A DNA stretch of 64,000 bases from a virus (lineage: Duplodnaviria; Heunggongvirae; Uroviricota; Caudoviricetes): the IMG/VR virus record IMGVR_UViG_3300028888_000071, positions 22,638 to 86,637 of that record. One strand, written 5' to 3'. The position numbers and the translations under genes are program-made. Under the pieces are notes generated by a model. It saw nothing but the letters and a program-made list of their open reading frames with translations. It did not search any database and was not told where the DNA came from. Shown here in pieces: positions 9,485-57,812 of the stretch; the first letter of the stretch is position 1; each line of letters starts with the position of its first letter.

Positions 9485-10108
9485 ATGAAAGTATTAGACA
9501 CAAACCAATTCATTTCTGAACGAATGAAAATCAGACCGGTGACTAATGCAGAACTGGACCAGATCCAGCAAGACATAGAAAACATGAAGTATGAACTCAC
9601 CGATAAAACAAAAAACATAGGAGACGGCACAACATTATATTGCATCAGAGCACTTAAAGACATCCCATCAGTAGAAGTCAAAAAAGGAGACTTAGGTGGC
9701 TGGATTGAGTCGTATGACAATCTAGACCAGAAAGGAGACTGCTGGGTTGCAGATGATGCTCGCGTGTTTGACCACGCTAGAGTGTATGGCAATGCTCAAG
9801 TGTATGGCCGTGCTGAAGTGTATGGCAATGCTAAAGTGTATGGCGATGCTAATGTATATAGTTTTGCTTATGTGTATGGTGACGCAGAAGTGTATGACAA
9901 TGCAAAAGTGTGTGGTCACACTTATGTGCACGATAAAGCTAAAGTGTATGACGCTGCCCAAGTCAATGGTTATGCTCATGTATTTGGCAACGCTAAAGTG
10001 TATAACAATGCTAAAGTGTATGGCAATACTTATGTATATGGCAATGCTCAAGTGCATGGCACTGCTGAAGTCAACTATGATGTCAAAGATAAAAGTATAG
10101 ACAAATAA
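9485..10108 (+). CDS. leader-domain + VYGNAx hexapeptide-repeat protein (family member 1)
   Basis: N-terminus MKVLDTNQFISERMKIRPVTNAELDQIQQD, then GDLGGWIESYDNLDQKGDCWVADDA, then about 50 tandem 6-aa units ((V)YGNAK/VYGDAE) encoded by 18-bp tandem repeats. Confidence 0.7.
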   Translation: MKVLDTNQFISERMKIRPVTNAELDQIQQDIENMKYELTDKTKNIGDGTTLYCIRALKDIPSVEVKKGDLGGWIESYDNLDQKGDCWVADDARVFDHARVYGNAQVYGRAEVYGNAKVYGDANVYSFAYVYGDAEVYDNAKVCGHTYVHDKAKVYDAAQVNGYAHVFGNAKVYNNAKVYGNTYVYGNAQVHGTAEVNYDVKDKSIDK

Positions 10109-10201
10109 AATATAAAATGAATAGCAAGCCGCCTGACTGACGGCTTTTTTAGTCTATAAAAAACACACATTAAATTTATTATTTATTCAAATACTGCATA
10201 C

Positions 10202-10226
10202 TTTTGTTATATTCAATTATAAATTA
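10202..10226 (+). promoter_or_regulatory. conserved promoter-like motif TTTTGTTATATTCAATTATAAATT
   Basis: Member of a family of at least 13 sites, located about 6-40 nt upstream of start codons. Confidence 0.45.
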
Positions 10227-10231
10227 TTGGA

Positions 10232-11575
10232 ATGAGAACACGAACAATAGACAATTTTCTGGACGTTGACCAAAGGCAGTTCGCCGAATCTGTAGTTGAA
10301 GACCGTGCAATACCGAGCTGCATCGATGGCTTCAAGCCAGTGCAGAGAAAAATCATATACATCGCAAACAAGATATGGAAGACTGGAAACGAGAAGCCGA
10401 TGAAAGTGTTCCAGCTTGGCGGGCATGTCTCAAGCCAAGCGATGTATGCTCACGGCGATGCTTCACTCAACAAAGCAATCTCGCTCATGGGCACCACATA
10501 CAAGAACAGCCTCCCGCTGTTAGAAGGCCACGGGCAGTATGGCTCGCTCCGTGTGCCAGCAATGGGTGCTCCAAGATACATCGGCACGAAACTGTCCAAG
10601 AACTTCAGACTTCTCTACAAAGACTTCGAACTTCTCAAGAACAAGATAGACGAAGGCGTCGAGGTCGAGCCTGACTTCTTCTTGCCCATCGTCCCGACTA
10701 TACTGCTCAATGGAAGTTCCGGCATCGCAGTCGGATATTCGACTAACATCTTGAACAGGAACCCGCTTGATGTCATTGACGCTTGCACCGACTATCTCAA
10801 AGGCAAGAAAGTGAAAGAGCTCAAGCCGTGGTTCAGAGAGTTCAGCGGCACTTGGAAAAGAGATGACGAAATCGTGAACAAGTGGAACATATCAGGCGCA
10901 TACCAAGTAGTGAACACCACGACAGTGAAAGTCACTGAACTGCCGCCTGACATCACATTCGAGAAGTATGAAGACTGGCTCGAGACACTATGCACGAAAA
11001 AGACCATATTTGACTACGACAACAACAGTTCAAGCTCAGTCAACTACACATTGAAGTTCAATCGTGCGACTCTTAAAGACCTCATCTCTTCAGGCAAGCT
11101 GGAGAATGTGCTGAAAGTGAACTCGTCTGAGACAGAGAACATCGTCGCTATCGATGAGAACGGCAAGCTCAAAGTGTTCAGTCAAGCTGAAGACATCATA
11201 CCATATTTCTGTGAGTTCAGACTAAAATGGTACGACAAGAGAAAAGAATATATCATCAACAAATTGCAGCAAGAGCTTCTCGTGCTGTCAAACAAAGCAC
11301 GGTTCATCAAGTCAATCATCGACAAGAAACTCAAAGTAAACAATGTCCCGAAAGCAGAAGTGGTAGCTTGGCTTGCAGACAACAAGTTCGACAAGATGAA
11401 CGGCAGCTTTGACTACCTGACGAACATGGCTATCTACAATCTGACAAAAGAGAAATATGAAGAACTCCTCAAACAGAAAGAAGCGAAAGCCAAAGAACTT
11501 GATGACATGAAGAAACGTGTTCCGAAAGACATGTACATGGATGATTTGAAAACCCTTAGAAAAAGTGTTGCGTGA
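10232..11575 (+). CDS. type II DNA topoisomerase, GyrA-N-terminal-like subunit (T4 gp52-like)
   Basis: FKPVQRKIIY...GHVSSQAMYAHGDASLNKAISLMG...GQYGSL...GAPRYIGTKLS parallels GyrA KPVHRR...YHPHGD...GNFGS...AMRYTEARL, including the active-site Tyr. Confidence 0.7.
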   Translation: MRTRTIDNFLDVDQRQFAESVVEDRAIPSCIDGFKPVQRKIIYIANKIWKTGNEKPMKVFQLGGHVSSQAMYAHGDASLNKAISLMGTTYKNSLPLLEGHGQYGSLRVPAMGAPRYIGTKLSKNFRLLYKDFELLKNKIDEGVEVEPDFFLPIVPTILLNGSSGIAVGYSTNILNRNPLDVIDACTDYLKGKKVKELKPWFREFSGTWKRDDEIVNKWNISGAYQVVNTTTVKVTELPPDITFEKYEDWLETLCTKKTIFDYDNNSSSSVNYTLKFNRATLKDLISSGKLENVLKVNSSETENIVAIDENGKLKVFSQAEDIIPYFCEFRLKWYDKRKEYIINKLQQELLVLSNKARFIKSIIDKKLKVNNVPKAEVVAWLADNKFDKMNGSFDYLTNMAIYNLTKEKYEELLKQKEAKAKELDDMKKRVPKDMYMDDLKTLRKSVA

Positions 11576-56857: not shown

Positions 56858-56899
56858 ATTTACGATTATCTTTATTTTATTTATAAATTTGTTTTTGGA

Positions 56900-57391
56900 C
56901 TATAGATAATGATATAGTTTTAATAGAATCTTGTGTATAAAGCCAAGAAATGTCTTTGGCTCATGTTCACTCATGACATCACCAATATGTTTCTTTTCAT
57001 TGCAGATTCCAACATCTGTATTGTATGAAACACACTTTCCTGATTGGCGTGCAGCAACAATCACTGTGTATCTATTGTTGTTTATTGTGTTAAGCAAGTC
57101 CTCTTGGTAGTCACGCAATGTTATGAGATTTAATGCGCCGGTAGAAGGGTTCATCGTGTATGCGAAATGATTGGCAAAGTAATTGATGTCATTCTTGCAC
57201 CGCACCATAGTCTCGATTTCTTCCTTTGTGTATTCGAACTGCAAGAATGGTTTTCTCAACTGCTGGTTGCCATAGAAAAACGGGCTTTCTTTTCTTTCAA
57301 TGCCCATGTCAAGATCATTCATATATTCATTCACCATTTTGGTGGACCATATAGTTATTGTCTTGTCTTTCTGTATTTCTTTTCGTTCCAT
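56900..57391 (-). CDS. terminase large subunit, N-terminal piece (up to Walker-A GK) fused to a 44-aa intein N-terminal segment
   Basis: MVRCKNDINYFANHFAYTMNPSTGALNLITLRDYQEDLLNTINNNRYTVIVAARQSGK parallels T4 gp17 [56 protein letters not shown]. It is followed by CVSYNTDVGICNEKKHIGDVM... (intein block A-like) and a stop. Confidence 0.65.
   Translation of the reverse strand: MERKEIQKDKTITIWSTKMVNEYMNDLDMGIERKESPFFYGNQQLRKPFLQFEYTKEEIETMVRCKNDINYFANHFAYTMNPSTGALNLITLRDYQEDLLNTINNNRYTVIVAARQSGKCVSYNTDVGICNEKKHIGDVMSEHEPKTFLGFIHKILLKLYHYL
56903..57034 (-). mobile_element. intein N-terminal segment (block A; Cys1 directly after the P-loop Lys)
   Basis: CVSYNTDVGI...KHIGDVM matches the block A pattern C-h-s-x-D/N-T-x-V...K.I.D.L. 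It ends after 44 residues. Confidence 0.5.
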
Positions 57392-57395
57392 ATTC

Positions 57396-57812
57396 TTAAC
57401 ATATTTCTGCGGTTCCTGCTACTTTAACGATAGTGTCACTCAATGATCTATGACCAATCTGTTCCAGTTTTCGTTTAGCATCATTCTTTGTTGTGGCATC
57501 TTTAAAATATCCAAGCCACCAAGCCATACGCTGCTGTTGTTCGTCATAAGACGAAGCTTTTTCAGCAAACCAGTCAACTGCATAGCTTGGCACAAGCAAC
57601 ACAGAATGATATTCTGCATATTTGAATTCTTCAATCTTATAGTGGTCGTAGCAGCATATATAATGTCTGAATGCTGGACTGCTTGCAGCTGCTATGTAAA
57701 TCTTTGTGTTTTCTATTTCTGTCTTCACTTGCTCCCATTCTGCATTCGTGACTGGTTTAATCTTCATTCGTTCAGAAACAAAGTCATAGATCTTTAGAAC
57801 TTTCATAAGCAT
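57396..57812 (-). CDS. leader-only family member 11 (138 aa), directly upstream of the terminase N-piece
   Basis: MLMKVLKIYDFVSERMKIKPVTNAEWEQVKTE. The DNA carries the conserved tttgtttctgaacgaatgaag element. Confidence 0.55.
   Translation of the reverse strand: MLMKVLKIYDFVSERMKIKPVTNAEWEQVKTEIENTKIYIAAASSPAFRHYICCYDHYKIEEFKYAEYHSVLLVPSYAVDWFAEKASSYDEQQQRMAWWLGYFKDATTKNDAKRKLEQIGHRSLSDTIVKVAGTAEIC

Follow-up and report, generated by a model that had tools for sequence, protein, structure and literature searches.

What does a short N-terminal leader do when it recurs on a dozen genes of one phage? This question was raised by a 64-kb stretch of viral DNA (positions 22,638 to 86,637 of the IMG/VR record IMGVR_UViG_3300028888_000071), hereafter the window, in which twelve open reading frames (ORFs) carry the leader MKILDTxQFVSERMKIRPVTNAELDQ, one of them (41222; members are named by their lower coordinate in the window) with its second half only. 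Eight of the twelve then run into beta-solenoids of the YdcK type. Judging from sequence comparison, the leader is on balance probably a two-part capsid-targeting propeptide for a large and fast-evolving set of packaged and ejected proteins, a reading to which we give a modest preference. It was favored because of an invariant Glu residue at position 12 of the leader, the likeness of the leader to the capsid-targeting sequences (CTSs) of phage T4, a protease of the S77 family in a close relative, and a promoter box shared with the head genes.

The window was assigned to a huge T4-related phage because it encodes T4-type genes, which were a gp23-type major capsid protein (MCP), a gp17-type large terminase (TerL), gp25-like baseplate genes and a type II topoisomerase, and because it is collinear with the 321.7-kb metagenome contig JAEEGL012333506.1 (J322). 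The 24 collinear orthologues showed a median amino acid identity of 73.5% (88% for the MCP and 76% for TerL). The nearest TerL was that of a 462-kb uncultured 'huge phage' (42% amino acid identity), with the T4-like phages further off, and a search of the GenBank phages for DNA close to the window gave a single trivial match and none close at the DNA level. Loci of further relatives were obtained from scans of IMG/VR and of JGI/NCBI metagenomes. An anaerobic ribonucleotide reductase encoded by one relative suggests an anaerobic habitat. The numbers of leader genes given for J322 below cover about 170 kb of that contig.

The twelve ORFs that an earlier, model-made note had listed were all present at the coordinates and on the strands given there (Table 1), and the leader that it ascribed to all of them was complete in eleven. 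The 20-nucleotide core of the leader occurred 10 times with three or fewer mismatches, against 0.01 expected from shuffles. The division of the family was also as described: in eight members the leader was followed by a second block (IKALKDIPS..VKKGDLGGW.ESYDNLDQKGDCW) and then by a hexapeptide array terminating in (D/N/T)Y(E/D/V)(V/I)K/N..., and four members (34999, 37726, 41222 and 57396) had unrelated C-termini. The 18-bp periodicity of the repeat DNA was reproduced, while the number of repeats, put at 25-50 in that note, came to 18-46 in-register units without register breaks. The ORF 41222 starts at the internal Met of the leader, and the DNA upstream of it looks like a decayed first half; in P0051, a database protein, this cargo motif follows a complete leader. 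No match in Pfam or PHROGs was found for the four non-solenoid members or for most neighboring ORFs without assignment.

The distribution of the leader was investigated by an exhaustive HMMER search with a leader profile over 1.84 billion representative proteins (clusters at 50% identity), which matched 161 clusters. True members made up about 146 of the top 150, with the tag at residues 1-35 in nearly all, and the median length of the leader-bearing proteins was 159 residues. The family was recovered by this exhaustive search, as a word-indexed protein search with the leader profile gave one protein only. The window together with the first set of related loci contained 53 leader ORFs. Leader variants were found on differing bodies in six adjacent genes of a 5.4-kb contig, 20 distinct leaders in a relative's contig of 128.6 kb, and at least 25 leader genes in J322. 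The cargos fell into about 32 groups not linked by BLAST, mostly small proteins. On these sequences, the family is defined by the leader and not by the solenoid. Since a tblastn search of the GenBank phages with the consensus leader gave no match, deposited phages appear to be devoid of this tag.

An alignment of 135 diverse members revealed Glu12 as the sole invariant column, while M1, F9, R13, K15, P18, T20, N21 and E23 were each conserved in 90% or more. Two modules were distinguished: module A comprises residues 1-12, MK(I/V)L....F(V/I)(S/A)E, and module B comprises residues 13-26, R(M/V/I)K(V/I)(R/K/Q/M)P(V/I)TN(A/D)E(L/W/F). Module B comes in flavors, such as RPVTNAEL in the window and MPITNDEF in J322; its identity was 0.77-0.87 inside a genome and 0.58 between the window and J322, and module A gave no such signal. 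Each module also occurs alone, module A in 43570 of the window and in J322 L050:7295-8161, and module B in the truncated 41222. The AlphaFold2 (AF2) model of 34999 had a mean predicted local distance difference test score (pLDDT) of 75.7, in which the cargo scored 82-94 and residues 1-35 scored below 50 and were not packed on the cargo.

Module A shares its layout with the T4 CTS, namely MK, a few variable residues and then an aromatic, an aliphatic and a small residue followed by Glu; the T4 internal proteins (IPs) IPII and IPIII start with MKTYQEFIAE. CTSs are propeptides of 10-20 residues, and gp21-type proteases cut after Glu (PMC5694885). A protease of this kind was found in J322, where the first about 190 residues of the ORF L065:1-1667 (-), at about 317.8-319.5 kb, matched Peptidase_S77, the family of T4 gp21, with 44.3 bits (cutoff 27). 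The S77 domain was followed by twelve exact 14-residue repeats of xDYLAEQLQKNxDH until the ORF ran off the end of the locus. This ORF contained 13 [FYW][LIVM][AS]E motifs, spaced 14 residues apart, where 0.14 were expected, and the motif occurred at 0.35 per 1000 residues in the non-family proteins of the window. The F-(V/I)-(S/A)-E12 of the leader follows the pattern of this repeated motif. The ORF resembles a fusion of a protease with a scaffold-like domain in which the protease's own cleavage motif occurs many times over; we infer that the YLAE repeats act as scaffold and are cleaved. More widely, Portal_T4, Gp23 and Peptidase_S77 were all found among the relatives, and J322 has a Gp23-type MCP, a T4-type portal and TerL.

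The promoter box also connected the family with the head genes. The box TATAAATA occurred 21 times in the window, against 1.4 expected, and 14 genes had it 16-22 nucleotides before the ATG. These include the operons of the baseplate (8581) and of TerL (22385), an MCP-adjacent gene and five family members. The boxes noticed earlier before 23396, 26214 and 32874 were confirmed, and others were located before 57396, before 41222 and before 8951, ahead of 9485; other family members lie downstream in same-strand arrays. In J322, TATAAATA boxes lie before 8 of the 25 leader genes as well as before the MCP and the S77 protease. The late promoters of T4 are well established and were the basis for likening TATAAATA to a late promoter. 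The family is predicted to be expressed, probably, with the head genes because it shares the box with them and because of this analogy.

We infer packaging, cleavage at Glu12, ejection and the function of the cargo, and the course of events would be as follows. Module A would correspond to the T4 CTS, ending in a site for a gp21-family (Peptidase_S77) protease and cut after Glu12, while module B would provide an extra docking element with a sequence particular to each genome. The tagged proteins would be made late from TATAAATA promoters along with the head proteins, incorporated into the core scaffold of the prohead, released by the protease, retained in the head when it is filled with DNA, and delivered to the next host by ejection. 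The cargo would form a fast-turning-over arsenal of small proteins, consisting in this phage mostly of YdcK-type rods that diversify by changes of repeat number and by recombination, and in the relatives of DUF285/BspA-like repeats and about 30 unrecognizable small domains. These cargos would probably act on host defense or physiology at entry, as T4 IPI* and Alt do. We propose more tentatively that the two-part label of this clade loads dozens of quickly exchanged effectors per genome into the capsid for co-injection and that module B co-evolves with the scaffold.

Several observations weigh against capsid targeting. No prohead protease was detected in the 64-kb window by BLAST or phmmer with T4 gp21 or by Pfam, so that its presence in this phage is presumed from the relative. 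The conserved region extends 14 residues past the proposed cut site, unlike the T4 CTSs, and module A is alike to MKTYQEFIAE at about 6 of 10-12 residues, a stretch too short for statistics, even with FIAE found exactly in one relative. The role of TATAAATA as a late promoter is assumed from the analogy to T4 and the association with head genes; a search for gp55 and gp45 in the window and the partial genomes of the relatives gave no match, which is uninformative as these genomes are partial. Moreover, TATAAATA also fronts the genes of a 1358-residue helicase-like protein and a RimK-like ligase, and genes behind the box need not be structural. Finally, the members are small (14-40 kDa) but do not resemble small basic DNA-associated proteins, as the solenoids are acidic, while the T4 IPs are basic. 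The isoelectric points of the solenoid members were 5.1-5.9 and those of the four others 7.1-8.5, with a clade-wide median of 6.5 for the cargo.

The similarity of the leaders might instead originate at the nucleotide level, with the leader acting as a DNA or RNA element (a recombination handle, a translational operator or an initiation enhancer) or being a mere product of very recent duplication. Codon identity in the leader was indeed 0.63 within the window and 0.61 between genomes, above the 0.375 expected from codon usage; the solenoid paralogues do recombine, and cargo turns over rapidly between genomes. However, leader codons 2-24 gave a rate of nonsynonymous substitution (dN) of 0.17-0.19, a rate of synonymous substitution (dS) of about 1.17 and a ratio (omega) of about 0.15, alike within and between genomes, and every 4-fold site of the leader (S11, R13, P18, V19, T20 and A22) varied. 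A consensus RNA structure over the leader reached only -0.8 kcal/mol, with no covariation and no conserved fold, and neither Rfam families nor tRNAs were found in the window. Because dS was saturated, omega was about 0.15, the 4-fold sites varied and RNA structure was absent, we concluded that the constraint acts on the leader peptide and not on DNA or RNA. The claim that the leader was conserved even at synonymous positions had therefore been overstated. Recent duplication or gene conversion as the source of the identity was ruled out by the saturated dS together with the equal codon identity within and between genomes, and an RNA-level role by the lack of Rfam matches, tRNAs and consensus structure. 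Indeed, the leader is kept in genomes whose backbone orthologues share just 31-47% identity. The block shuffling pointed out in the earlier note was evident between 24031 and 33572 (93-100% identical across about 240 nucleotides) and between 33572 and 34296 (93-100% identical over the 3' end of about 150 nucleotides), with 52-60% identity in between. The breakpoints lay away from the leader, which was 78-88% identical where the neighboring blocks were 93-100% identical. The recent tracts neither begin nor stop at the leader, contrary to its supposed use as a recombination handle, and a nucleotide-level explanation is very improbable.

The peptide could also serve outside the head, and the second proposal of the earlier note, a baseplate or fiber attachment module, belongs here. 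The leader would anchor varied binding modules at a common site of the virion exterior, for example on the capsid, the neck or the baseplate, where they would serve as decoration or adhesins. This would agree with the co-regulation of these genes with structural ones (baseplate, neck, portal and terminase), among which they are interspersed, with the solenoid and DUF285/leucine-rich-repeat-type repeats as typical binding modules, and with the genome-specific module B as a docking interface; tailspikes and fibers with conserved N-terminal anchors and swapped distal parts are well known. However, the leader is only about 30 residues long, predicted to be unstructured and unpacked in the model, in contrast to a tail-fiber or tailspike anchor, and its invariant residue is the Glu of a protease-type motif. 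Most cargos are globular and about 160 residues long rather than fibers, a single outer site would be contested by at least 25 different tagged proteins in each genome, and stand-alone solenoid homologues of small phages are early, non-structural genes. We therefore regard an external anchor as quite unlikely. An intracellular tag apart from the virion appears unlikely as well. The leader would then bind a phage or host partner (a chaperone, a protease as a degron, or a compartment or membrane complex) or act as an oligomerization element, and in the infected cell it would coordinate many late accessory proteins in their activity or turnover. The selection on the peptide, its N-terminal position, the diversity of the cargo and the specificity of module B would need only a common partner and no capsid, and the RimK-like ligase and the 1358-residue helicase-like protein share the box and a loosely similar MKI... 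N-terminus. This explanation leaves unexplained the resemblance to the T4 CTS, the S77-linked pattern of protease sites, and the late production of proteins with early homologues. A capsid-targeting tag cut at VSE|R, the first proposal of the earlier note, was the best supported, by Glu12, the CTS likeness, the S77 relative and the box; taken as a whole, the interpretation in that note was supported in part.

The solenoids are one kind of cargo among many. Six solenoid members were scanned against PF18836 and scored 30-69 bits (cutoff 30). Matches to phrog_5070 had E values of 1e-62 to 1e-107, and Salmonella YdcK (2F9C) was matched with E=6e-19. As the phrog_5070 match begins at residues 33-35, the part behind the leader is a complete phrog_5070-type protein. 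The AF2 model of 23396, built with 8 paralogues, was a solenoid with a periodicity of 6 residues (mean pLDDT 53), and a Foldseek search of PDB with this model gave nothing at E below 0.2. Stand-alone homologues were found in early, non-structural gene contexts: orf229 of phage Sfi19 sits between cro/AcrIIA6 and Gam/Sak4/helicase genes, and the homologue of Mannheimia phage 587AP2 comes after RecT and an exonuclease. In the window, proteins of this type instead carry the tag and have a putative late promoter, a point in favor of capsid targeting. When the 135 database members were searched against Pfam, DUF285/BspA-like repeats were recognized in nine and YdcK solenoids in two, and nothing else was recognized. 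The earlier emphasis on solenoids therefore holds for the window, where they account for eight of the twelve members, and does not extend to the clade; the solenoid expansion is peculiar to this phage. Although the backbones of the window and J322 are 74% identical, tagged genes at matching places bear differing cargo.

Two internal duplications were observed in solenoid members. In 24031, a 90-bp unit corresponding to five hexapeptides is present in 2.6 copies at 92% identity (window 24581-24818), and in 33572 a 24-bp in-frame duplication (KIQQDMKD/KIQQDIKD) lies at the end of the leader (window 33644-33695). Both are very recent and show ongoing repeat expansion. A cargo was also seen without the tag: the product of window 7004-7474 (+), 156 residues without leader, is 40-42% identical to the tagged cargo of L022:9537-10184 and L050:10813-11376, so that the same cargo exists in both tagged and untagged form.

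Among known systems, the closest likeness is to the internal proteins of T4 and the T-even phages, in which IPI, IPII, IPIII and Alt likewise carry a short N-terminal tag on otherwise unrelated small proteins. Both belong to phages with T4-type head genes, represented here by the gp23 and gp17 families in the window and the gp20 and gp21 families in relatives. The T-even IPs are diverse defense proteins with only the CTS in common (PMC3012670). Further likenesses are the putative late-type TATAAATA promoter on the genes here and a cargo set that is hypervariable among related phages. The leader differs from the T4 CTS in its length of 25-30 residues, in its two modules, the second of which lies beyond the putative cut site, and in having no detectable sequence homology beyond the motif. 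The genes also differ from those of T4 in number, being 12 in 64 kb here and at least 25 in about 170 kb of J322 as compared with 3-4 in T4, and in position, being scattered through the genome rather than gathered in one IP locus. The CTS principle of T4 has been known since the 1990s for 3-4 proteins. The system of the window can be regarded as a much enlarged form of this CTS/internal-protein principle with an extra module, in uncultivated huge phages, and we found no paper or database entry that describes it.

The phiKZ-like giants offer another parallel, as paralogous head proteins of these giant phages (SPN3US gp53/gp54 and phiKZ gp93) have processed N-terminal propeptides. The diverged paralogues gp53 and gp54 of SPN3US share an identical N-terminal 15-mer with x-x-E sites, which was read as CTS-like (PMC5694885). 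Unlike the present leader, the propeptides of phiKZ-like ejection and inner-body proteins are mostly longer than 100 residues and are common to about two paralogues with related bodies, and the promoter and MCP sequences of those phages are not T4-type, whereas here one short tag serves about 30 unrelated cargo folds. Block 2 and the hexapeptide array are homologous to the YdcK-type proteins (PF18836; Salmonella YdcK, PDB 2F9C/2PIG; phrog_5070/7964; Sfi19 orf229), but the homologues of small phages and bacteria have no leader and sit in early regions, and the arrays here are unusually regular. The phrog_5070/YdcK family contained no member with a known function, and a literature search for functions of YdcK solenoids in phages and for such a leader in surveys of jumbo phages gave nothing relevant. 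By analogy, polymorphic effector systems likewise combine one N-terminal delivery tag with many quickly exchanged C-terminal cargos and several paralogues per genome, although their machinery is entirely different, without sequence or structural relation.

Table 1. Leader-bearing genes of the window and associated features.
Feature	Coordinates	Strand	Remarks
Leader + YdcK-type solenoid, 18 hexapeptides, 207 aa	9485..10108	+	Directly after 8951-9478, which has a TATAAATA box
Leader + solenoid, 19 units, 212 aa	23396..24034	+	TATAAATA 20 nt upstream; AF2 model made
Leader + solenoid, 29 units, 274 aa	24031..24855	+	Recent 90-bp internal duplication; mosaic with 33572
Leader + solenoid, 31 units, 285 aa	26214..27071	-	TATAAATA 19 nt upstream
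Leader + solenoid, 22 units, 230 aa	32874..33566	+	TATAAATA 20 nt upstream; heads same-strand array to 38193
Leader with in-frame 24-bp duplication + solenoid, 22 units, 239 aa	33572..34291	+	KIQQDMKD/KIQQDIKD
Leader + solenoid, 21 units, 232 aa	34296..34994	+	3' end of about 150 nt near-identical to 33572
Leader + unrelated C-terminus	34999..35490	+	AF2 model made
Leader + unrelated cargo, 155 aa	37726..38193	+	Cargo group of 7 clusters
Truncated member, module B only (MKIKPVTNTEF) + Cys-rich cargo, 141 aa	41222..41647	+	TATAAATA at 41164, 50 nt upstream
Leader + longest solenoid, 46 units, 374 aa	42436..43560	-	Downstream of 43570 and RimK-like gene; TATAAATA-headed unit
Leader + unrelated cargo, 138 aa	57396..57812	-	TATAAATA 11 nt upstream; adjoins TerL N-terminal piece 56900-57391
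Module A only (MKYIFNIDNFLAE|AQ), 241 aa	43570..44295	-	Most T4-CTS-like N-terminus of the window
Divergent split leader (MKIKNFSDYVSQ ... LKPISHAEQKIY), 176 aa	24873..25403	+	TATAAATA 22 nt upstream
T4 gp23-type major capsid protein (head context)	59322..61094	-	Four TATAAATA boxes upstream

Other genes of the window showed weaker similarities to the family. Seven N-termini (8951, 13124, 18425, 24873, 53482, 54182 and 61550) and that of 43570 are loosely leader-like with the pattern M-K-I-(L/K)-x3-4-(E/D/Q)-(F/Y/W), against about 0.2 expected from internal-Met controls, a pattern that was defined post hoc; these eight non-family proteins lie mostly behind TATAAATA. The pattern may reflect a signal shared by the N-termini of a wider set of proteins, or a bias in late genes that is related to translation. 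Among them, 61550 is perhaps a looser relative with a divergent two-part N-terminus like that of 24873. The identification of 43570 as a homologue of gp13 or gp22 found no support and was rejected. The 1358-residue protein of window 13124-17200 (+), also behind a TATAAATA box, had weak matches to T5orf172 and ResIII helicase; its N-terminus is MKILKSNEY... with MLSE at residues 17-20, and it would be an unusual gene for co-expression with head genes. The RimK-like ATP-grasp ligase (window 44302-45828 (-), L001:9-1388 and J322 L040:18752-20017) stands behind a TATAAATA box, and its position beside leader genes is conserved in three relatives. The enzyme may ligate peptides late in infection or in association with the virion, for example in poly-glutamylation.

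Further features were noted in the neighborhood. TerL appeared to be split, with a separate 163-residue ORF at 56900-57391 (-) that matched T4 gp17 residues 87-166, beside the leader gene 57396 and 35 kb from the main TerL at 20426-22372 (-), and this arrangement is kept in J322, where L055:9489-9968 adjoins a leader gene. The intergenic region 19393-19645 is AT-rich and non-coding with repeated GTCATCTA-like motifs, and shows 94% identity to two copies lying side by side in the relative with the 128.6-kb contig (L019:12388-12814). Its conservation far exceeds that of the coding backbone. No Rfam or tRNA match was obtained for this region, which may serve as an origin, a cluster of promoters or a regulatory array. 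Two other paralogous groups were present. The MFSD(N/S) family (75-136 residues) consists of five tandem genes after the topoisomerase at 11575-13077 (+) and a distant copy at 63667-63912 (+), and has counterparts in J322 (12217 is 52% identical to L064:6245-6472). A pair of proteins of about 430 residues starting with MKKIKW(G/A)CIQPLTGG is encoded at 1713-3002 (+) and 57909-59216 (-), on opposite strands and 55 kb apart; they are probably DNA methyltransferases.

If the leader is a capsid-targeting propeptide, the proteins that huge and so far unculturable phages carry into the cell could be listed from sequence alone. More than 150 protein families of unknown function would be united by the tag in an 'injectome' and would be prime anti-defense candidates, among them beta-solenoid rods narrow enough for the tail tube. 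The tag would also offer a ready-made packaging signal for engineering. The list would change completely between phages with 74% identical backbones, the expected signature of an arms race. Because this turnover fits an arms race with host defenses, the list would be a focused place to look for new anti-defense proteins. The CTS principle of T4 would thereby be extended to dozens of proteins per genome, and the second, genome-specific module may show how cargo recognizes the scaffold. For the widespread YdcK-like solenoids of phages, it would provide a first functional context, as proteins made in advance and delivered on entry.

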